Positions 21,329-31,722 of a DNA stretch of 64,000 nt are shown piece after piece (within the stretch, counting starts at the first letter, position 1; each line of letters starts with the position of its first letter). Made by a program: the position numbers and the translations under genes. Below the pieces are notes generated by a model. That model was given only the letters and a program-made list of their open reading frames with translations. It ran no database searches and was not told the origin of the DNA. This stretch comes from a virus (taxonomy: Duplodnaviria; Caudoviricetes), in IMG/VR virus record IMGVR_UViG_3300032328_000860, positions 1 to 64,000 of that record. One strand, written 5' to 3'.

Positions 21329-22481
21329 TCAAGCACAATTAAAAAATCTATCAGATTTATTGTGTGATGATATTGAAAACCTATTGAATAGTTTAGAGAT
21401 ACAAGACTTTAAACTAATGGATAAAATGGTTTCTATGTCTTGTCCTATTCATGGGGGAGACAATGGTTCAGCATTTAATCTATACCATCAAGGAGACTCT
21501 TATAGAGGCAACTGGAAATGTAGAACACATAATTGTGAACAAATTTTTAAATCTTCTATCTTAGGTTTTATTAGAGGCTGTTTATCTAGAAATGAAGGAT
21601 GGTCTAAGCTAGGAGACCCAATAGTATCTTTTAATCAGGCGCTACAATACGCTATAGATTTTTCTAAATATGATCCGGCATCAGTTAAAATATCCAGAAA
21701 ACATAAAGAAAAGTCTGCTTTTGTTAATACTATTAAGCACGTTGGGGACTCTTTGCATAAAGAACTCAACACTTCAAACGGCAATATTCCAAAAATACCT
21801 AGACAGTCTGTAATAAGAGCATTAAAAATTCCTTCATCATATTTTATAGACAGAGGTTTTTCGTCCGAAATATTAATCAAATACGATGTGGGAGATTGCA
21901 TAGATACAACCAAAGAAATGTTCGATAGAGCAGTAGTGCCTGTGTATGATACTTCCGGACAGTTTATGGTAGGATGTACAGGACGAAGCGTTTTCAATAA
22001 ACATGAAGCGTGTGGTTGTTATCATAATGTGAATAAAGATTGTCCACGAGACACAGATCAGTGGAAGCACTCTAAATGGAAACATAATAAAAACTTTAAG
22101 ACACAAGATCATTTATATAACTTTTGGTATGCTCAAAAATATATAGAAAAATCTAAAACGGTTATTATTGTAGAAAGTCCGGGCAATGTTTGGCGTCTCG
22201 AAGAAGCAGGAATACATAATTCGGTAGCAATATTTGGATCATCTATGCATCAAAAACAAAAGATGCTGCTCGACATATCTGGAGCAATGTCTATTATTAC
22301 TATAATGGATAATGATGATGCTGGCAGGGCGGCTGCGGCAAATATAGAGTCCAAATGCAGTAGAACATATAATGTATACCATTTATCTTTAGAGCATTCA
22401 GATGTTGCCGAAATGACTGTAGATGAGGTAAAAAATATTATTATTCCACAACTAAATATTCATGAAAGTATTATATGCTAA
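21300..22481 (+). CDS. dnaG: DNA primase (DnaG-like)
   Basis: Zn-binding CPIH..WKC..C, GCTGR, TOPRIM IVESPGNV and MDNDDAG. Confidence 0.88.
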   Translation: MNKKKSRSYDQAQLKNLSDLLCDDIENLLNSLEIQDFKLMDKMVSMSCPIHGGDNGSAFNLYHQGDSYRGNWKCRTHNCEQIFKSSILGFIRGCLSRNEGWSKLGDPIVSFNQALQYAIDFSKYDPASVKISRKHKEKSAFVNTIKHVGDSLHKELNTSNGNIPKIPRQSVIRALKIPSSYFIDRGFSSEILIKYDVGDCIDTTKEMFDRAVVPVYDTSGQFMVGCTGRSVFNKHEACGCYHNVNKDCPRDTDQWKHSKWKHNKNFKTQDHLYNFWYAQKYIEKSKTVIIVESPGNVWRLEEAGIHNSVAIFGSSMHQKQKMLLDISGAMSIITIMDNDDAGRAAAANIESKCSRTYNVYHLSLEHSDVAEMTVDEVKNIIIPQLNIHESIIC

Positions 22482-23197
22482 TATTGGGAATTTCTGGACG
22501 CAAACAATCAGGGAAAACTACTACAGGTAATTTTATTTTATCATTATATCTGTCTAAACTACAATTTAGTGACAAAATATATATAGACGATTATGGTCAA
22601 CCAGTAGTATCTGATATACTTGGCAATGCCGCCTACAGCGGAGTATTTGACCCTAATAATCTGCCACAAGACGATGATACAAGGTATCTTGTTTCTAAAC
22701 TAAATAGCCAGATCAAGATTTATAATTTTGCAGATATCTTAAAGACCGATATATGTATAAATATACTAGGACTAACTAAGGAACAATGTTATGGATCAGA
22801 TGACAAAAAAAATGAATTAACAGATATGTTTTGGGAAGAAAAACAATTGTCTTGTAGGGATGTAATGCAAACTGTTGGTACTGATATATTTCGTAAATTA
22901 GATCCTAATGTTTGGGTAAGATCCACCATATCAAAAATTATGAAAGAATCGCCCGAATTAGCATTAGTTACAGATTGCAGATTCCCAAATGAAATAGAAG
23001 CTATAAAAAATGTTGGCGGAAAAGTTCTTAGATTAACAAGAAATCCTTTTAATTCTGATCATATTAGTGAAACTATCTTAGATAAAGACAAGTATGATTG
23101 GTCTAATTTTGATTTTGTAATAGATAATGACAAAATGTCTTTGTATGACCAATTAGTAGAAACCAAACAACTTTTGGAGCAAATATTAGATATATGA
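22475..23197 (+). CDS. Deoxynucleoside monophosphate kinase
   Basis: GISGRKQSGKTT, FAD.LK, RDVMQ.VGTD.FR, DCRFPNE and HISE. Confidence 0.88.
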   Translation: MLILGISGRKQSGKTTTGNFILSLYLSKLQFSDKIYIDDYGQPVVSDILGNAAYSGVFDPNNLPQDDDTRYLVSKLNSQIKIYNFADILKTDICINILGLTKEQCYGSDDKKNELTDMFWEEKQLSCRDVMQTVGTDIFRKLDPNVWVRSTISKIMKESPELALVTDCRFPNEIEAIKNVGGKVLRLTRNPFNSDHISETILDKDKYDWSNFDFVIDNDKMSLYDQLVETKQLLEQILDI

Positions 23198-25179
23198 TAA
23201 TTACATATTTTCGTAGTTCTAGCTATAATACACACAGTATGTGTGAACAACAATTCTTTGCAGAATATGTTTTAGGTTGGCGTGGTCCATCCGGACAAAA
23301 AGCAGACAAAGGAACTATTGTACATAAGGTACTAGAAATACTAGCGATTATTAGAAAGTCCGAACAAGACAAGATCGATACTTTTGAAGATGATGTTGTA
23401 GGCACAGTATCAATACATAACTATAATTTAAATACAATCATAGAAAAAGTATATAAATACTATACAGAAAAAACAACACACCATAAGTGGTCAATCAAAG
23501 ATTATAAAGATTGTCATGCGTGGGTTTATAAGGCGATAGAATTTAATAATGGGATGTTTGATCCTAGAAACAGAAATATTCTGTGTCCAGAGCAGCATTT
23601 TGATTTTGAAATTAAAAAACCTTGGTCCAAATACTCGTATAATATTGACGAACAAACAATAGAAGGCAATTTAGCTCTCAAAGGCACAATAGATTTGATT
23701 ACATTAGTAAATGATAATACCATAGAAATTATAGACTGGAAAGGATTACCAATAAACACTTCTTTACCAACACCTAATGGATGGACAACTATGGGAGAAG
23801 TTTTGGTGGGAGATAAGGTTTTTGACCAATATGGTCATCAATGTTCTGTTATTGGAAAATCTAAAGTAAAAACCAAAGATTGTTATAGAATAACATTTGA
23901 TGATAAAACATCAGTAGTTTGTGACGATGAACACTTATGGAAATTGAGTAGTGGAGAAACAGTTTGTGTTACAGAACTAAATAATGGTGATACTATAAAT
24001 GTTTGTAAGCCATTAATTTGTGATGATATTGAATTACCAATAGAACCATATTTATTAGGAGTATGGCTAGGAGATGGGAGAAATAGACAGTGTGAACTGA
24101 GTGGAAATGATATAGAGATTTTTGAAGAAATAGAAAAGCGTGGATATAAACTTGGTAAAATATGTTCTGACAAAAGATCCAATAATAAAACTGTAACAGT
24201 TTTGAAAACGAAAGATAAATTACGCTCACTTAACTTATTGAATAACAAACATATTCCAGAAATATTTTTTAGAGCCTCTTTTAATCAAAGATTAGATTTA
24301 TTGAGAGGACTTATGGATACTGACGGAAACATTAATACAAAACGAAAGCAAGCGGTCTTTACGTCTTGCAATAGAAGATTATCTAATGATGTTAAACACC
24401 TACTCTTAACACTAGGACAAAGACCTAATCAAAGCTTTATAAATAGAAATACTAATTTCAAAAATGATGTTAATATTTTTCCAATAGCATTTAGGCCAAT
24501 AAATCTAAATCCATTTTTACTATCCAGAAAAGCGGACAAAGTTGATGTTAATTGGGGGTCTGGCAGATCTAGTGTTAGACGAATAGTAAGTATAGAAAAA
24601 TCTATAACACAAAAAACTCAATGCATATCTGTAGATAGTCCAGACAATACTTATTTATGTACAGAAAATTTTATTCCAACACATAATACAGGCAGAAGAT
24701 TAGATTGGGCCACTGGACAGGAAAAAACTATTGAAAAACTGGAAAAAGATCCTCAGCTAAGAATCTATCATTATGCTATCAAACACTTATATCCTCATAT
24801 CGAGAATATTATGTTCTCTATTTATTTTATTAATGATGGCGGTCCATTCTCTATATGTTTTCACGATAAAGATTTGAATGATACCGAAAATATGATTAGG
24901 CAAAAATTTGAAGCTATTAAGTCTACTAAAAAACCTAAACTAAGTAAAAGTTGGATGTGTAGTAAATTGTGTCATTTTGGCAAAACAACATTCCAAAATA
25001 CTCATATTGAGCCTATCGTAGAATACAGAGATGGACAAGCATGCGGAATTGGGCAGTCTATGACCAAATGTGAGCAAATTAAACACGATCTTGACTTATA
25101 TGGTATCGACACTACAATGGGTCTGTACAAACATCCCAATCACGTCATAGGTTCATATAAGGCTCCCGGATCGGTATGA
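23194..25179 (+). CDS. PD-(D/E)xK exonuclease (Cas4/AddB-like) containing an intein
   Basis: SS.....C, GTIVHKVLE, E, LKGTIDLI, IIDWK|TG, QLRIY and a C-terminal Cys cluster. Confidence 0.85.
   Translation: MIITYFRSSSYNTHSMCEQQFFAEYVLGWRGPSGQKADKGTIVHKVLEILAIIRKSEQDKIDTFEDDVVGTVSIHNYNLNTIIEKVYKYYTEKTTHHKWSIKDYKDCHAWVYKAIEFNNGMFDPRNRNILCPEQHFDFEIKKPWSKYSYNIDEQTIEGNLALKGTIDLITLVNDNTIEIIDWKGLPINTSLPTPNGWTTMGEVLVGDKVFDQYGHQCSVIGKSKVKTKDCYRITFDDKTSVVCDDEHLWKLSSGETVCVTELNNGDTINVCKPLICDDIELPIEPYLLGVWLGDGRNRQCELSGNDIEIFEEIEKRGYKLGKICSDKRSNNKTVTVLKTKDKLRSLNLLNNKHIPEIFFRASFNQRLDLLRGLMDTDGNINTKRKQAVFTSCNRRLSNDVKHLLLTLGQRPNQSFINRNTNFKNDVNIFPIAFRPINLNPFLLSRKADKVDVNWGSGRSSVRRIVSIEKSITQKTQCISVDSPDNTYLCTENFIPTHNTGRRLDWATGQEKTIEKLEKDPQLRIYHYAIKHLYPHIENIMFSIYFINDGGPFSICFHDKDLNDTENMIRQKFEAIKSTKKPKLSKSWMCSKLCHFGKTTFQNTHIEPIVEYRDGQACGIGQSMTKCEQIKHDLDLYGIDTTMGLYKHPNHVIGSYKAPGSV
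23743..24687 (+). mobile_element. Class-3-type intein (315 aa, starts with Gly) with LAGLIDADG endonuclease
   Basis: GLPINTSLPTPNG, CDDEHLW, PYLLGVWLGDG, LRGLMDTDG, TQCISV and IPTHN|T. Confidence 0.88.
25091..25118 (+). promoter_or_regulatory. Sigma70-like promoter TTGACT-N16-TACAAT
   Basis: About 58 nt upstream of the dnaE N-half start. Confidence 0.55.
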
Positions 25180-27041
25180 TTAAAAATTATTCTGTATTGC
25201 ACTGCCATTCTCACTACAGTCTGTTAGATGGTATAAGTAAGCCACATCAAATTGGAGACAGATGTACTAGCATAGGAGTATCGTCTTGTGCTATTACTGA
25301 TCATGGATCAATTTCTGGTTGTGTTCAATTTTATCAGGCTATGAAAACAAGAAAAATAAAACCTATACTAGGATGTGAACTATATATCAGTACTGATAGT
25401 GCTACTAATAAGACTAAAGACAATAGTAAACTAAGTCACTTTCTTATTATAGCTAAAAATTTATCTGGATGGCATACTTTGATCAAAATAGTATCCGAAT
25501 CCAATAAAGAAGAATATTTTTATCATAAGCCAAGATTAAGCATGGATATATTGGCTGATTTGTTAGATGGCAATATTATAGGCTACTGTGGACATTTAGG
25601 ATCCACATTATCAGATCTAGCACACCATTCTGGTGGAGATATTAAACAATGTTCTGACTATATCTACAGAATGAAAGAAATATTTGGTCCTGAAAATTTC
25701 TTTTTAGAAGCACAATTAATGGATCAAGAGTTTAGTCCAGAACAAAAAGATATGACCGACTTTATGAGAAATCTATCTCATAAAACACAAACTAAAATTA
25801 TTGCAACTCCGGACGCTCATTATTGTGAGAAAAAAGATGCTATTGATCAAAGAATTTTATTATGTAATAATCTAAAGACGACATTAATAGATATCAATAA
25901 GAAGATTTTGGCTGGTCAAGATGTGCCTATGAGCTGTTTTTTTAAATCAGAAAATTTCCATATTCCAGACAGTATCGAAATGAATGGATGGCATACGGAA
26001 GAAGAAATAGAAAACACTAACTACATTAGTAGTATGTGTGAGGAATACGACATACTTAATAAGCCTATGTTGCCCACTTTTCTATGTCCAAATAATAATG
26101 CTCCGGATGAATATTTAAGACAATTATGTCGTAATGGATGGAAAGATAAAATAAAAGACGTTATTCCAGAATCAGAACATCACATCTACATAGATAGAAT
26201 CAAGTTTGAATTAGACATTTTGCAAAAGGCTGGTCTGTCTAGCTATTTTCTTATTGTTCAAGATATTGTCGAATATGTTAAGAATAATAACTGGTTACCT
26301 GGACCAGGACGAGGTAGTGCTGCCGGTTGTTTAGTCTCTTATTTGATAGGCATTACACAAATTAATCCGATCAAGTATGATTTATTATTTGAACGATTTT
26401 ATAATGAGGGCAGAAATACCGCCGATCACATATCTATGCCAGATATAGACGTAGACGTACCAATTAATAAAAGAGAATATGTTATAGACTATATTAAAGA
26501 AAAATATGGTAGAGATAAGGTATCGCAAATGATTACTTTTAATACTATGAAAGGTAGAGGTGCTCTCAAAGAGGTACTTAGAGTATATGGTAATATTTCT
26601 TTTGAAGAAATGAATAGAATCACCAAATATATACCAGACGAGTCTAAAATAGCAGACGAGCTGCAAGAAATGAAGGAAGATACCGGAGAGTCTTCTATTA
26701 TACGGTGGGCGTTAGAGAATAACGTTGACAAACTCAAAGAATGGTGCTATATATCTGATGACGGTTCTTTGGCGGGTCCATTGGCAAAAAGATTTGAACA
26801 AGCCATACGTCTTGAAGGCACTAAATCTAATCAATCTAAACATGCAGCCGGTGTAGTTATTAGTAAAGAAAGTCTTGGTTCTGTGTGTCCTATGATCTAC
26901 GATGCTAAAAATAAGCAAAATATCGCGGGTATGGAAATGCAGGATTTAGAGAGCCTTGGTTTAATCAAGTTTGATATATTAGGAGTAGCTATGTTGGATA
27001 AAATTATGGCCGTATCAGAAACTCTTAAAAATGGAGAATAA
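25176..27041 (+). CDS. dnaE: DNA polymerase III alpha, N-terminal half (PHP + palm/thumb)
   Basis: LHCHSHYSLLDG, TDHG, GPGRGSAAG, LLFERF, MPDIDVD, HAAGVVIS and GLIKFDILG, followed by a stop. Confidence 0.93.
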   Translation: MIKNYSVLHCHSHYSLLDGISKPHQIGDRCTSIGVSSCAITDHGSISGCVQFYQAMKTRKIKPILGCELYISTDSATNKTKDNSKLSHFLIIAKNLSGWHTLIKIVSESNKEEYFYHKPRLSMDILADLLDGNIIGYCGHLGSTLSDLAHHSGGDIKQCSDYIYRMKEIFGPENFFLEAQLMDQEFSPEQKDMTDFMRNLSHKTQTKIIATPDAHYCEKKDAIDQRILLCNNLKTTLIDINKKILAGQDVPMSCFFKSENFHIPDSIEMNGWHTEEEIENTNYISSMCEEYDILNKPMLPTFLCPNNNAPDEYLRQLCRNGWKDKIKDVIPESEHHIYIDRIKFELDILQKAGLSSYFLIVQDIVEYVKNNNWLPGPGRGSAAGCLVSYLIGITQINPIKYDLLFERFYNEGRNTADHISMPDIDVDVPINKREYVIDYIKEKYGRDKVSQMITFNTMKGRGALKEVLRVYGNISFEEMNRITKYIPDESKIADELQEMKEDTGESSIIRWALENNVDKLKEWCYISDDGSLAGPLAKRFEQAIRLEGTKSNQSKHAAGVVISKESLGSVCPMIYDAKNKQNIAGMEMQDLESLGLIKFDILGVAMLDKIMAVSETLKNGE

Positions 27042-27043
27042 TC

Positions 27044-27223
27044 ATGGAGAGAACTTTTAAAGAATTAATTGTTGGTACAAAGTTTACTGTAAATAATGTG
27101 GAATATATTAAAACAGAACCGGTAAGAGTTAGTTGCTGTCGATCTATCAACTGTCAAGTAGCTAACGATCCCGGTCAAAAAACCTTTTTTCCAGATGAGG
27201 CTGTAGTAACTATCAATGGCTAA
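27044..27223 (+). CDS. Small Cys-containing hypothetical protein (59 aa), absent from the ORF track
   Basis: GGAG upstream; ATG at 27044 to TAA at 27223; MERTFKELIVGTKF..SCCRSINC..DEAVVTING; fills the gap exactly. Confidence 0.6.
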   Translation: MERTFKELIVGTKFTVNNVEYIKTEPVRVSCCRSINCQVANDPGQKTFFPDEAVVTING

Positions 27224-27908
27224 TTTCCAAAAAATTTGTGTTTTTGATTTAGAAACGGATGGGTCTAATCCAGATATTTGTAGTCCAGTGCAGATAGCTG
27301 CCGTAATGGTTGATCCTGTTAGATTAGAAATCATAAAAGATTCAGAATTTAACATTATGATTAAACCAGATGCTTTAGAAAATGACTCAAGCTATAATTA
27401 CGGAGATTCTGATATATTGGACTTTCATGCCAAGGTTAGGTCATCTACAAAAGACAAGATCTTGGCTAGTTGGCTAGAATATCCGAAGCAAGATCACAGT
27501 TGGAATATGTTTGTTTCATATTTAGATATGTATCATATTAGATCTTCTAATAAAAGTTGCTTTACTGCACCTATTGCAGCCGGATATAATATCAATAGAT
27601 TTGATTTACGAATTACAGAACGACTGAGTAAAAAATATAACAATCTCAATAAAGAAGGCAGGTCCTCTCTATTTTATCCTAGAGACGTTATAGATATCAT
27701 GAATCTTGTCTTTTATTGGTTTGAAGGAAATAACGAACTCAAAAACTATACTCTAGATAATCTTAGAGATTATTTAGGAATAAATAAAGACGGGGCGCAC
27801 GATGCTTTAAAAGACGTACAAGATAGTGCTAATATTTTGATTCGTTTTTTAAAGCTACATCGCAATATGTCTAAAAAAATTAAGTTCAAATCTTCTTTTA
27901 ATCTATAG
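27216..27908 (+). CDS. DEDDh 3'-5' exonuclease (DnaQ/epsilon-like)
   Basis: FDLETDG (ExoI), GYN..RFD (ExoII) and AHDALKD (ExoIII). Confidence 0.9.
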   Translation: MANFQKICVFDLETDGSNPDICSPVQIAAVMVDPVRLEIIKDSEFNIMIKPDALENDSSYNYGDSDILDFHAKVRSSTKDKILASWLEYPKQDHSWNMFVSYLDMYHIRSSNKSCFTAPIAAGYNINRFDLRITERLSKKYNNLNKEGRSSLFYPRDVIDIMNLVFYWFEGNNELKNYTLDNLRDYLGINKDGAHDALKDVQDSANILIRFLKLHRNMSKKIKFKSSFNL

Positions 27909-27913
27909 GATTT

Positions 27914-29539
27914 ATGTCAAAAAATTTAGTATTTGATTGTGGGTGTCAATTCAAGGTTCTTGATGATGCTACGAATAGTAACAATCCTAAAATATTGTTT
28001 TCTCCAAAAATATCAGATATTAGTTTGGAGTGTTCAAAAACATGGGAATTAATTTCAGAAGGTAACACTAAGGGTTGTTTTCAACTAGAGTCGCGGTTAG
28101 GACAAACCATGGCTCGTAAATTAAAGCCACAAAATATTGAACAGTTATCTGGTTTAATAAGTATTCTAAGGCCGGGATGTCTAGAGGCACATAGAGACGG
28201 TAAAAGCGTATCGAATCATTATATCGATAAAAAAAATGGTCTTGAATCTATAGACTATTTTCATCCTGCTTTAGAGCCTATCTTAAAAGATACATATTCA
28301 GAAATGATATATCAAGAACAAGCTATGTCTATAGCCAAAGAGCTAGCCGGTTTTGATCTGAAAGAAGCAGACAATCTTAGAAAGGCGATAGGCAAAAAAC
28401 AAGCAGATAAAATGGCTAAGGTAAAAAAACAGTTTATTGATGGAGCCAAGACTAATGGCAAAATAACAGAAACAGATGCGGAACAAATCTTTGAATGGAT
28501 AGAAAAATCCCAAAGATATTTATTTAACGCTAGTCATTCTATTAGTTATGCAATGAATGCTTATCTATCTTCTTATGCAAAAGCGCATTTCCCCAGAGTA
28601 TTTTTTGCATCATATCTAAGATTTGCCAAAGACAAAATTGATCCGCAACAGGAAATCAAAGAGCTTGTTAGAAATGCTGTTGAAATGGATATTGTTGTTA
28701 ACATACCAGATTTTAGAAATCTGAATCGTTGTTTTATTTTAAAAGACAATTATATCTATTTTGGACTAACTGATATTAAGGGGGTTGGGGATTCTGTTTA
28801 TAATAAAATTATAACATTAGCAGACCAAAGGAACGTTAATGAGTTGTCCTGGACGCAGATTTTATCTAGTGTGCTATTAAATATTAATTCTATTGCTAGC
28901 AAAGCCTTGATTAGTTCTGGTGCATTTGATTATTTTAAGAAACACAGAACAGAGATGCTTTTTGAGTATGATATATGCAGTAATTTAACAAAGAAGGAGA
29001 TGATAAGTTTCATAGAACTAGCTAAAACAGAAACCTCTGTACAAAAAATTCTACAATATATCCTACAAAATAATAAGCTAATTAAAAATCGTAAACTAGC
29101 TTTTCAAAATTATGTGCATTCGTTGATTAGTCCTCCTTATTCTTTAACAGACAAGATAGAGTGGTTATCTGATTCGGAAAATGCTCTGCTAGGCGTTGCT
29201 ATTACATGCTCTAAGTTAGATGTATATGACGTATCCTCTGCGAATTCTAATTGCAAAACCTTTAAAACATCATACGCAAATAATAATATTATTATAGCTG
29301 GAGAGATTAGTAATATTAATATTGCTAAAACTAAAACAGGTAAAAATCCTGGACTAGAGATGGCTTTTATAACTATTGATGATCAATTTGGCTCATTGGA
29401 TTCGGTAATATTTTTCCCAGAGCAATTTGCTAAATATAGAAACTACTTGTATCCTGGAAATGTATTGGTTTTTTCTGGCAATAAAACTAAGTCTAAAGAC
29501 GGCTTGGTAGTAGAAAAATGCTTTGAACCAGCAGCTTGA
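27914..29539 (+). CDS. dnaE: DNA polymerase III alpha, C-terminal half (fingers, HhH, OB)
   Basis: GCFQLES, ILRPG, IYQEQ, ADNLRKAIGKK, FNASHS..Y, FGLTDIKGVG, ALISSGAFD and MAFITIDD. Confidence 0.92.
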   Translation: MSKNLVFDCGCQFKVLDDATNSNNPKILFSPKISDISLECSKTWELISEGNTKGCFQLESRLGQTMARKLKPQNIEQLSGLISILRPGCLEAHRDGKSVSNHYIDKKNGLESIDYFHPALEPILKDTYSEMIYQEQAMSIAKELAGFDLKEADNLRKAIGKKQADKMAKVKKQFIDGAKTNGKITETDAEQIFEWIEKSQRYLFNASHSISYAMNAYLSSYAKAHFPRVFFASYLRFAKDKIDPQQEIKELVRNAVEMDIVVNIPDFRNLNRCFILKDNYIYFGLTDIKGVGDSVYNKIITLADQRNVNELSWTQILSSVLLNINSIASKALISSGAFDYFKKHRTEMLFEYDICSNLTKKEMISFIELAKTETSVQKILQYILQNNKLIKNRKLAFQNYVHSLISPPYSLTDKIEWLSDSENALLGVAITCSKLDVYDVSSANSNCKTFKTSYANNNIIIAGEISNINIAKTKTGKNPGLEMAFITIDDQFGSLDSVIFFPEQFAKYRNYLYPGNVLVFSGNKTKSKDGLVVEKCFEPAA

Positions 29540-29563
29540 CACTGATCTCGTTCGGCCTATTAT
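29536..29563 (+). promoter_or_regulatory. Sigma70-like promoter TTGACA-N16-TATTAT
   Basis: Intergenic, upstream of ssb and its GGAG RBS. Confidence 0.6.
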
Positions 29564-29606
29564 AAATCGTTGTGTGACCTTTTTAATTTTTAAACGGAGA
29601 TTTGAT

Positions 29607-29981
29607 ATGAATATTACATTGCTTAGAGGTAATTTAGCTCGTGATCCAGAACTAAGAGTAGTTAATACTGGAGGCAAGCAAACATCTGTTGTTAATTTTA
29701 CTGTCGCAGTTAGTCGAGAGTATACTAAGAACAGCGGAGAAAAAGATAAGATTACCTCTTTTATTAATTGCGAAGCATGGGATAGCGGTGCAGATATGAT
29801 CGCAGAATCGTTCAAGAAAGGCGATCTAGTAATGATTGAAGGATCATTAAGAAATGATACCTGGGAAAAGGATGGTGTTAAGCATAGTAGTCTTAAGGTT
29901 AGAGTTAATAACTTTTCCAAGATTACTCGTTTGACCAAGGGGAACAAGCAAGGACAAACACAAGAGCCAGTGGCTTTTTAA
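29607..29981 (+). CDS. ssb: Single-stranded DNA-binding protein
   Basis: MNITLLRGNLARDPELR, FINCEAW and KKGDLVMIEGSL; GGAG RBS before the ATG at 29607. Confidence 0.93.
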   Translation: MNITLLRGNLARDPELRVVNTGGKQTSVVNFTVAVSREYTKNSGEKDKITSFINCEAWDSGADMIAESFKKGDLVMIEGSLRNDTWEKDGVKHSSLKVRVNNFSKITRLTKGNKQGQTQEPVAF

Positions 29982-30013
29982 TCATATCTAATATAGTCTT
30001 AAAGAATCGAGAA

Positions 30014-30046
30014 ATGTGGGGGTTGAAATATACCCCCATATTTTTA
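30014..30046 (+). terminator. Rho-independent terminator after ssb
   Basis: Stem ATGTGGGGGT / ACCCCCATAT followed by a T-run. Confidence 0.7.
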
Positions 30047-30051
30047 TATCT

Positions 30052-31722
30052 ATGAAATCTAATAAGCTAAAAATTCTATTGTGTTCAGAAGCCAGCTTTA
30101 TTAATTCTGGTTTTGGTATCTATGCCAAAGAACTACTATCTCGTTTATATGCTACTAACAAATATGAATTGGCAGAGTTTGCCTCATATGGGTTTGTTAA
30201 TGATCCTAGAGATTCTAACATTAAATGGAGATATTATGCGAACGCCGTCAAAGAGAACGATCCAAGACATCAAGAATATCAGTCTAGAACAGATAATCAG
30301 TTCGGAAGATGGAGATTTGAAAAAGTTTTATTAGATTTTGAACCCGATGTAGTTGTGGATATAAGAGACTACTGGATGAGCGCTTATCAAGCTGTGTCTC
30401 CTTTAAGAAAATATTTTCATTGGGTGCTGATGCCAACAGTCGATTCTGCCCCACAACAAGAAGAATGGATTGATACGTTTATAGGTGCAGATGCTATTTT
30501 TACATATTCAGATTGGGGTGCGCAAGTATTAAAGACACAATCTTCAAACAGAATAAATTATATCAATACAGTATCTCCTGGTGTTGATCTGAATATTTTT
30601 AAACCACAAAATCGTACAGAAATAAGAAATACTTTTGATATTCCTAGCGATGCTATTATTATAGGGTCTGTTATGAGAAATCAAAAACGTAAACTAATAC
30701 CAGAACTATTTGCTTCTTTTAGAGCCGTATTAGACGAACTAGAACGGTCGGATGATACAGATGTTGGTGAACGTGTGTTCCTATATCTGCATACAAGTTT
30801 TCCTGATATGGGCTGGGATATTCCAGAGCTACTTAAAGAACAAAGACTGAGTAATAAGGTTTTGTTTACTTATTTATGTAGAAACTGTGGGGACACATCA
30901 TGTTCGGTATTTAGTGGTCCTCAAAAGGTATGTAAAAAATGTCTAAATAAAGCAGCAACTTTTCCTTCCGTAACAGACGGAGTAAAATCCGAAACCTTAG
31001 CACAAATATATAATCTATTCGATCTATACGTACAATATTCTATATGTGAAGGTTTTGGTATGCCTCAAGTAGAAGCTGGTGCTTGTGGTGTGCCTATTGC
31101 TACGGTTGATTATAGTGCTATGTGTGATATTGTCAGTAAGTTAGAAGCTTATCCTATAAAAGTTAGAGCATTATTTAAAGAACTTGAAACCAAGGCTATG
31201 AGAGCATTTCCGGATAATCAAGATCTTAAGAATTATATCCTAGACTTTATCAAACAACCTATACAAGCAAAAGAACAAAAAAGAACGAGAACGGCAGAAC
31301 TAACTAGAGAGCATTATGATTGGAATAATATTATCAGCATATGGGAAACTTATTTTGATAATCTTGCTAATTCTAATATCAGAAAAGATTGGTCTAAAGG
31401 CGAAATATTAAAGTTATCAGTATTAACACCACAAAAAGAGGATTATAAAAGTAATTTTGATAAATTATTATATCTATGCAATTATAATATGCATGATCCA
31501 TCTATGATTGGTTCTTATCGTTTGTTGGAATTATTGAATCATGCAGATTATGGATTTGTTCATCAAAACACTACATCGATTATGCCATATGATTTTAAAA
31601 ATATATACTCTTATTTAGAAACTATAGTACATAATAATAATAGTACTCAAGAGATTAAGCAAAAAAACATTCAATTTGATGATGATTTTATCAGATACGC
31701 ACATTTAAAACTTAATAGCTAA
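30052..31722 (+). CDS. Glycosyltransferase, GT-B fold (GT4-like)
   Basis: SGFG, PGVDLNIFKP, RNQKRK and EGFGMPQVEAGACGVP (E-x7-E); CxxC..CxxC insertion. Confidence 0.88.
   Translation: MKSNKLKILLCSEASFINSGFGIYAKELLSRLYATNKYELAEFASYGFVNDPRDSNIKWRYYANAVKENDPRHQEYQSRTDNQFGRWRFEKVLLDFEPDVVVDIRDYWMSAYQAVSPLRKYFHWVLMPTVDSAPQQEEWIDTFIGADAIFTYSDWGAQVLKTQSSNRINYINTVSPGVDLNIFKPQNRTEIRNTFDIPSDAIIIGSVMRNQKRKLIPELFASFRAVLDELERSDDTDVGERVFLYLHTSFPDMGWDIPELLKEQRLSNKVLFTYLCRNCGDTSCSVFSGPQKVCKKCLNKAATFPSVTDGVKSETLAQIYNLFDLYVQYSICEGFGMPQVEAGACGVPIATVDYSAMCDIVSKLEAYPIKVRALFKELETKAMRAFPDNQDLKNYILDFIKQPIQAKEQKRTRTAELTREHYDWNNIISIWETYFDNLANSNIRKDWSKGEILKLSVLTPQKEDYKSNFDKLLYLCNYNMHDPSMIGSYRLLELLNHADYGFVHQNTTSIMPYDFKNIYSYLETIVHNNNSTQEIKQKNIQFDDDFIRYAHLKLNS

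Follow-up and report, generated by a model that had tools for sequence, protein, structure and literature searches.

A phage DnaE encoded in two genes that part at the palm/fingers junction, with an exonuclease gene between them

Introduction

C-family polymerases are the replicases of bacteria and are treated as single-chain enzymes, apart from an intein-spliced case in cyanobacteria. Here we analyze the first 64 kb (hereafter the window; 64,000 nucleotides, G+C content ~33%) of the virus record IMGVR_UViG_3300032328_000860, a 223,437-bp genome of an uncultured aquatic phage with a CheckV completeness of 100%. Its DnaE, the alpha subunit of a C-family polymerase, is encoded in two pieces, which we call alphaN and alphaC. 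Between them lie a small open reading frame (ORF), orf59, and the gene of a DEDDh 3'-5' exonuclease.

The closest well-described case is the split DnaE of cyanobacteria (Ssp and Npu; Wu et al. 1998, Caspi et al. 2003), which, as recounted in later papers, relies on trans-splicing by IntN and IntC (PMC2677866, PMC3919608). There, too, a replicative C-family alpha subunit comes from two genes. However, the cyanobacterial halves carry IntN and IntC, are ligated by trans-splicing, break at FNKSH (equivalent to alphaC 204-208) and lie at separate loci, whereas the phage break falls ~230 residues upstream at the palm/fingers junction, shows no intein, and leaves the two halves flanking an exonuclease gene. 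The 'fractured genes' of environmental phages include three dnaE loci with split inteins, the N parts of which are 88-105 aa long (Dassa et al. 2009, PMC2677866). These resemble our locus in being aquatic phage-like DNA with dnaE in adjacent pieces and a gene between, and one relative of the window, locus L048, is a textbook case broken at FNASH. Fractured genes nevertheless have split inteins and a free-standing homing endonuclease, and the window break has neither; its middle gene is instead what is probably the polymerase's own proofreading exonuclease, fixed across the clade.

Replicative polymerases in two pieces without inteins have also been described. The B-family polymerase of PhiKZ consists of DNAP-N and DNAP-C, which form a stable 1:1 complex of solved structure (PMC13648687). 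The phage DnaE would share with it an intein-less replicative polymerase of two chains assembling non-covalently, but the PhiKZ-type split PolB belongs to a non-homologous polymerase family, has another breakpoint and has no exonuclease gene between its halves. Further split B-family polymerases are the T4-like gp43 (43A/43B) and the two-gene PolB of Methanothermobacter. Group 2.2 jumbo phages, which are T4-like, encode a split 'minimal' Pol III alpha that lacks PHP, is specified by distant genes and occurs beside a family B replicase (Iyer et al. 2021, PMC7824862). It is likewise phage-encoded and intein-less, and its two proteins are predicted to make up a single enzyme again. What these jumbo phages encode is a reduced core whose break lies inside the nucleotidyltransferase module and which coexists with PolB, whereas the window has the full DnaE domain set, cut after the palm and encoded by adjacent genes, with no other polymerase found. 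It is also the sole published split of Pol III alpha that we found (PMC7824862).

The association with an exonuclease has its own precedents. The bacterial Pol III core (alpha-epsilon-theta) likewise pairs a C-family polymerase with a DEDDh proofreader, its alpha being one chain. PolC also has an exonuclease 'inside' the polymerase at the gene level; there it is an in-frame domain within PHP, whereas the phage exonuclease is a separate ORF at the palm/fingers junction. In two broad surveys of bacterial C-family polymerases, the splits mentioned are limited to the intein-split DnaE of cyanobacteria and to frameshift fragments (PMC3919608, PMC12926913), and our search of the literature found no description of a DnaE split between palm and fingers with an embedded exonuclease.

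Results

Two genes encode one complete DnaE

An initial annotation, made from the sequence alone, had read this locus as a DnaE divided into two genes with an exonuclease between the halves. The ORFs (Table 1) bear this out, and the Pfam domains are divided into a palm side and a fingers side. AlphaN matches PHP (PF02811, 7.6e-34, residues 8-180) and the full length of DNA_pol3_alpha (PF07733, 1-260/260, 1.2e-75), and phmmer pairs it with the Pol III alpha subunits of Thermus aquaticus (Taq), E. coli and Mycobacterium tuberculosis (Mtb) at E 2e-77. NCBIfam DnaE models match it at 1e-139, PolC models at 1e-34. Its catalytic aspartates, D423, D425 and D427 (PDIDVD) and D600 (KFD), are at least 97% conserved in 86 alphaN sequences, as are the PHP metal-ligand positions D18, H43, E68, H88, H140, D213 and H215; the PHP domain of the window also has H9-x-H11. 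AlphaC matches DNA_pol3_finger (PF17657, 20-166/166, 7.4e-45) and HHH_6 (PF14579, 3e-08), with an OB match of 26.6 bits that lies slightly below the 27-bit cut-off, and phmmer places it on E. coli alpha 586-899 (E 5e-47). Its fingers residues R86, Q134, E135, R156, K162, Y202 and H208 are invariant in 96 alphaC sequences. Modeled alone with AlphaFold 2 (AF2), alphaC has a predicted local distance difference test (pLDDT) score of 93 and a Foldseek match to Pol III alpha structures at E 1e-22; in this model it is predicted to fold confidently by itself as the C-terminal half of Pol III alpha.

In alignments to solved Pol III alpha chains, Taq 626 pairs with alphaN 608 and Taq 648 with alphaC 36, while E. 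coli 586 is the partner of alphaC 33. On the PHROG 405 profile the halves abut (alphaN 43-615, alphaC 618-1076), and on NCBIfam NF004226 they meet at about 567-575. Together alphaN and alphaC make up one complete DnaE, with nothing missing and nothing duplicated. The domains are not on a single chain: alphaN stops at codon 27039-27041, alphaC starts at 27914 and two ORFs lie between, and the halves are likewise apart in 161 related loci. AlphaN had been said to end about 18 residues past its third catalytic aspartate, D600; it does end shortly past it, at a distance of 21 residues. The cut lies in the loop after the palm, at about 570-585 in E. coli numbering. The E. coli domain limits of Lamers (2006) reportedly run the palm to 560 and the fingers from 561, and with these limits the cut falls in the loop behind the first fingers helix. 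P0168, a naturally contiguous relative of 1133 aa, shares 50% identity with alphaN and 44% with alphaC. In this protein four residues bridge the junction, in place of the ~7-aa tail and the ~23-aa extension found in the window.

The split is conserved and under purifying selection

A scan of viral contigs with alphaN returned 229 relatives, from which 80 close loci (94-68% identity) were kept, and a profile scan confirmed 583 further viral loci, from which 81 diverse ones were kept. The same breakpoint and gene order recur in 161/161. All 80 close loci have the order nuclease, alphaN, orf59, exonuclease, alphaC and SSB (single-stranded DNA-binding protein), as far as each contig reaches; alphaN (~621 aa) and alphaC (~540 aa) are nearly constant in length, and most junctions measure +1/+2, -8 and -8 to +24 nt. 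AlphaN ends without exception at position 611-620 of the hidden Markov model (HMM) in the 81 distant loci, where it is followed by the exonuclease and then alphaC, with an alphaN-exonuclease gap of -1 to 6195 nt (median 242) and a median exonuclease-alphaC gap of 11 nt. The conserved core is alphaN / exonuclease / alphaC, and alphaN and alphaC were never found apart in these loci. Ratios of nonsynonymous to synonymous substitution rates (dN/dS), taken from pairs with unsaturated dS, are 0.036 for alphaN, 0.032 for the exonuclease and 0.038 for alphaC. Both halves and the exonuclease are under strong purifying selection, which is relaxed on neither half.

The split family reaches well beyond these loci. 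In a search of 1.84 billion cluster representatives (50% identity) with alphaC, most of the best 150 were 500-580 aa long and aligned from residue 1-8. Among these 150, the split family extended down to 37% identity, its longer members were explained by inteins and few were contiguous DnaE. Database proteins of the ~540-aa alphaC type number in the thousands. Single distant alphaC queries, P0265 and P0152, had almost no matches, and P0168 had no locus among viral contigs and only a 31% match among metagenome contigs. Where both halves are on the contig, all 23 viral relatives of P0186 span 3.6-4.9 kb, versus a coding length of 3.3 kb, which points to split genes as judged from spans and not gene by gene. 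The best matches in INPHARED were ~34% identical to alphaN and ~31% to alphaC; those compared by coordinates were contiguous, and no cultured phage with the split was seen there. FastTree groups all split forms and four contiguous forms into a single clade (stem length 1.1, support 100) that excludes Salmonella DnaE and two phage DnaEs.

In a single-protein scan of the genome collection, the only four contigs found with the split form are from metagenome-assembled genomes (MAGs; loci L190-L193, freshwater, alphaC 56-63% identical, one contig of 141 kb). Their taxonomic labels conflict (Alphaproteobacteria, 'bacterium', Flavobacteriales and Chitinophagia). Mis-binning of phage contigs into bacterial MAGs is the probable cause, and we draw no host inference from them.

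AlphaC begins in two ways

The first ~23 residues of the window's alphaC have no counterpart in contiguous DnaE, and P0168 aligns only from alphaC residue 24. They contain a predicted beta-hairpin with a pLDDT of ~80, compared with the mean of 93. Cys9, Cys11 and Cys40, the last of which sits in an L-x-C-x-x-T-W block, do not vary among 96 alphaC sequences, even at identities as low as 36%. This hairpin form (type 1) accounts for 17/81 diverse loci and 80/80 close loci. Type 2, the remaining 64/81, begins at an I-D-Y-N-D-x-x-T-W block without a hairpin and mostly has Asp at the position of Cys40. Type-1 alphaN tails are also longer, with a median of 20 versus 17 residues beyond FD.LG, and end in an L-x-x-G-hydrophobic motif. 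The covariation of this tail with the alphaC hairpin fits a putative lineage-specific junction clasp, perhaps a metal site. It had been suggested that the extension (FDCGC) serves as an assembly module. The extension does carry invariant cysteines, but it cannot be a general assembly device, because 64/81 diverse split loci do without the extension.

The middle gene is an exonuclease

The universally conserved middle gene is the exonuclease and not the small ORF. It lies between alphaN and alphaC in 161/161 loci, matches phrog_192, 'DNA polymerase exonuclease subunit' (7e-22), and keeps D11, E13, D130, H195 and D200 at 97% or more in 128 sequences drawn from loci of both alphaC types. By contrast, orf59 is present in 80/80 close loci while its HMM matches nothing in the 81 distant ones, making it clade-specific. 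It has no Pfam match above cut-off and no PHROG or NCBIfam family, and the ESM Atlas gives only unnamed viral clusters. AF2 models it as a small all-beta barrel (pLDDT 93.5), for which the best PDB matches are generic SH3-like folds (Z ~5). Theta (HolE) of the Pol III core is helical. No relation between theta and orf59 was found, the latter being without a family match and modeled as an all-beta SH3-like barrel. Neither orf59 nor the exonuclease matches a homing-endonuclease family in Pfam, PHROG or NCBIfam. The locus had been likened to a Pol III-core operon; the likeness stands for a co-oriented string that includes the exonuclease, but not for orf59 as a standard member, which occurs only in the window's clade.

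In many type-1 and type-2 lineages (L083-L157) a ~75-aa ORF family (LSLC..ND...YQVH...FS.LY...A..KF.E.K.K) comes right after alphaN, and it stays behind alphaN even where 6 kb of other genes precede the exonuclease. Some lineages have no small ORF in this place. A comparison by hhalign gave no sign that orf59 is related to the ~75-aa family (probability 0.1%).

Alternative explanations

One alternative is that the finished halves are ligated, through a cryptic or atypical split intein or through protein ligation of another kind. Inteins are very common in this gene family. Relatives carry contiguous inteins at four alphaC positions (~85, 131, 156 and 206 in window numbering), split-intein dnaE is known from environmental phage DNA (Dassa et al. 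2009, PMC2677866), and a true split intein is present in L048 (8663-11676). There, alphaC is cut at FNASH into two ORFs with a split HINT (N part ~100 aa, C part ~40 aa), and a free-standing 305-aa LAGLIDADG gene lies between the pieces, leaving DnaE in three. L048 thus also serves as a positive control: HINT/Intein_splicing matches were obtained from it, and the window halves give none. Since inteins were detected at four alphaC sites in relatives, they are easy to detect in this family, and none stands at the alphaN/alphaC junction. AlphaN has at most 13 residues beyond its last DnaE-homologous position, and the extra N-terminal residues of alphaC number ~23-30 in type 1 and 0-10 in type 2. 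Such termini are far too short for a split intein, which in L048 takes ~100 + ~40 residues. The end of the extension has no conserved terminal Asn before Cys/Ser/Thr, and no Cys/Ser nucleophile opens an intein-like tail. The initial annotation had seen no intein blocks and an uninterrupted FNKSH-equivalent site, and both observations hold. Neither half has a Pfam intein/HINT match, and FNASH is intact at alphaC 204-208, close to where the NCBIfam models of the cyanobacterial DnaE halves (NF007079, NF005616) meet (alphaC ~205). We find ligation of the halves very improbable.

ORF-containing group I introns can occur in phage genes, and T4 gene 60 is a known case of bypassing. The halves could be joined at the RNA or translation level, through an intron holding orf59 and the exonuclease, frameshifting, readthrough or bypassing, and six relatives do have a puzzling stop-containing insert of 9-12 nt elsewhere in alphaN. 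However, a permissive Rfam scan of 24500-30200 found no intron, and intron RNA would have no room in the many type-2 loci whose three ORFs lie -1 to 12 nt apart. The intervening exonuclease shows strong purifying selection and has an invariant DEDDh pentad. Each ORF has its own start codon, and there is no conserved recoding site, because junction gap lengths and frames vary among relatives. Joining of this kind is thus highly unlikely. We also consider it unlikely that no single polymerase is rebuilt, with one half a relic, or with separate jobs for the halves (alphaN in nuclease or repair functions, alphaC in DNA binding) while a host polymerase replicates the phage. Pfam matches show neither a clamp nor a clamp loader in the phage genome, so that the phage would depend on the host for part of replication, and many type-2 relatives have lost ~100 PHP residues. 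Yet dN/dS is ~0.04 for both halves, neither the catalytic Asp of alphaN nor the nucleotide-binding fingers residues of alphaC vary, and the two halves are never apart in 161 loci. We know of no catalytic use for a palm without fingers, or fingers without a palm, in Pol III alpha structures, and this also speaks against separate jobs. Finally, although the record is a metagenome-assembled virus contig, an artefact of assembly or gene calling, such as a frameshifted or chimeric contig, is refuted by comparison: 161 loci from different samples share this architecture, alongside the thousands of ~540-aa database proteins.

Gene string and genome context

The genes of the split DnaE belong to a longer co-oriented string (Table 1), with intergenic gaps of +2 nt (alphaN/orf59), -8 nt (orf59/exonuclease) and +5 nt (exonuclease/alphaC). 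The upstream nuclease gene belongs to the same string, its stop codon overlapping the alphaN ATG (ATGA). Since the alphaN start overlaps this stop, the transcription unit begins farther upstream than alphaN. The 'one promoter-like motif' that had been placed ahead of the operon is not supported: sigma-70-like sites in 22000-30500 number 48, no commoner than in shuffles (44.4 +/- 6.2), and a promoter and terminator scan gave no signal above chance. SSB is kept downstream in those close loci whose contigs reach that far. PolA, PolB, beta-clamp and clamp-loader have no Pfam match in the 223-kb genome. The split DnaE is the only polymerase found in it, and the phage presumably uses the host clamp.

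Some details of the flanking genes are added here. A LAGLIDADG intein lies at ~23743-24690 inside the nuclease; among the 80 close loci it occurs only in the window and L074, and in close loci without it nuclease residue 183 is followed directly by residue 499. The SSB ORF as listed (29523-29981) has a TTG start at 29523 and overlaps alphaC. A more likely start is ATG 29607, which follows a GGAG and coincides with the beginning of the Pfam SSB domain. At 29956-30053, the Rfam model L20_leader matches weakly (25.5 bits versus a gathering score of 58.7, E 0.083), probably by chance.

Table 1. Features of the split DnaE locus, in window coordinates
Feature	Coordinates	Strand	Remarks
Co-oriented gene string	22.4-30 kb		dNMP (deoxynucleoside monophosphate) kinase, PD-(D/E)XK nuclease, alphaN, orf59, DEDDh exonuclease, alphaC, SSB
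PD-(D/E)XK nuclease gene	23194..25179	+	Pfam PDDEXK_1 and LAGLIDADG_3; upstream of alphaN in 80/80 close loci
alphaN, N-terminal DnaE polypeptide, 621 aa	25176..27041	+	PHP, palm, thumb, first fingers helix; ends ...LKNGE
orf59, 59 aa, all-beta (predicted)	27044..27223	+	Invariant F14, C31, C32, N36, V55
DEDDh 3'-5' exonuclease (epsilon/PolC-exo-like), 230 aa	27216..27908	+	Pfam RNase_T 2.4e-11; overlaps orf59 by 8 nt
alphaC, C-terminal DnaE polypeptide, 541 aa	27914..29539	+	Rest of fingers, HhH, OB
alphaC N-terminal extension	27914..28033	+	Residues 1-~30; predicted beta-hairpin 4-6/12-17; Cys9, Cys11 (F-D-C-G-C-x-F); Cys40
FNASH site	28523..28537	+	alphaC 204-208; uninterrupted; site of the cyanobacterial split DnaE intein
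SSB gene	29607..29981	+	Pfam SSB 3.1e-25; downstream of alphaC

Other irregularities in the relatives

Several relatives depart from the window in other parts of the two genes. Many type-2 alphaN (for example L095-L117) lack ~100 PHP residues (HMM ~110-210), whereas no metal-ligand position is lost in the window's clade. Decay of PHP may be under way in type-2 loci where the DEDDh exonuclease suffices. Six loci from at least three lineages (L052, L054, L060, L064, L065 and L075) have an in-frame stop in PHP motif I of alphaN, right after H-V-H-S, for instance at about 4094/6025 in L064, at 6016 in L065 and at 6013 in L075. The stop-bearing inserts are 9-12 nt long (TAA GTG ACT; TAA GTG AGA TCA; TAG AGA TCA) and fall at the window's HS|HY; L076 and L078, sister loci of L065, have no such insert. 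A Ser-to-Ser hop (TCY...TCA) would suit the L065 and L075 inserts but not the L052 type, whereas a stop followed by a GTG restart would suit L052 and L065 but not L075.

Further breaks occur as well. An extra break at alphaN ~residue 381 in L138 and L155 resembles a split intein: the pieces carry extensions of ~88 aa and 25-40 aa, and in L155 they are separated by ~800 nt. In L091 and L111, the cut falls at alphaN ~residue 420, adjoining PDIDVD, and leaves a tail of 12 aa and a leader of ~85 aa that may belong to an atypical split intein. The intein-bearing alphaC relatives are P0122, P0125, P0146 and P0126, and some of their inteins have LAGLIDADG domains.

Discussion

Taken together, our results argue that alphaN and alphaC probably form a non-covalent DnaE-type replicase, with the exonuclease as its likely proofreading subunit. 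The initial annotation had proposed a functional DnaE of two non-covalent chains meeting at the palm/fingers junction. That proposal is supported, at the level of genes and sequences, by the constancy of the arrangement in 161/161 loci, by selection and by the invariant catalytic residues, and it is further backed by the lack of another polymerase in the genome and of room for an intein or an intron.

In such an enzyme, alphaN would supply PHP, the whole palm with its three catalytic aspartates, the thumb and the first fingers helix. AlphaC would supply the rest of the fingers, with contacts to deoxynucleoside triphosphate and template, together with the HhH duplex-binding module and OB. The native palm-fingers interface would be re-formed by the two chains without a covalent link, and the DEDDh exonuclease would most likely join as the proofreading subunit, so that the complex is probably at least a trimer. 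The tight, co-oriented genes suggest coupled translation, which may yield near-equal amounts of the subunits. In type 1, the Cys-bearing alphaC hairpin may stabilize the junction, possibly as a metal site, and the clade-specific beta-barrel of orf59 may contribute too.

Several observations weigh against this proposal or limit it. The type-2 lineages have no hairpin, so the element proposed to stabilize the junction is not general. In the FastTree phylogeny the contiguous forms P0168/P0141 and P0186/P0193 nest within the split clade at two places, which means that the split can be reversed or had more than one origin; the tree fits one old split with rare re-fusion, the placement being provisional. 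Constraint on orf59 is weaker and noisier, with a median pairwise dN/dS of 0.44, though 0.09 against the closest relative. A clamp-binding motif was not identified in the split DnaE.

A bolder version of the proposal can be put forward tentatively, and we regard it as doubtful in its entirety. The exonuclease might be an obligatory structural bridge in a three-chain alphaN-exonuclease-alphaC enzyme. A single insertion of its gene at the palm/fingers loop, in the ancestor of a very large clade of aquatic phages, might have made the split, arriving by another route, and non-covalently, at a PolC-like 'internal exonuclease'. The hairpin with its three cysteines in type 1 might then be an inter-subunit metal site.

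Annotation pipelines label both halves 'DNA polymerase III subunit alpha', and the split passes unremarked. A very large group of aquatic phages nonetheless appears to replicate with a DnaE permanently cut between palm and fingers. The implication is that the interface between the domains suffices to keep the active site together. These phages would offer a natural system for palm-fingers communication, subunit assembly and proofreader docking, and an evolutionary example in which the insertion of a gene can fix a 'gene in pieces' without any splicing element.

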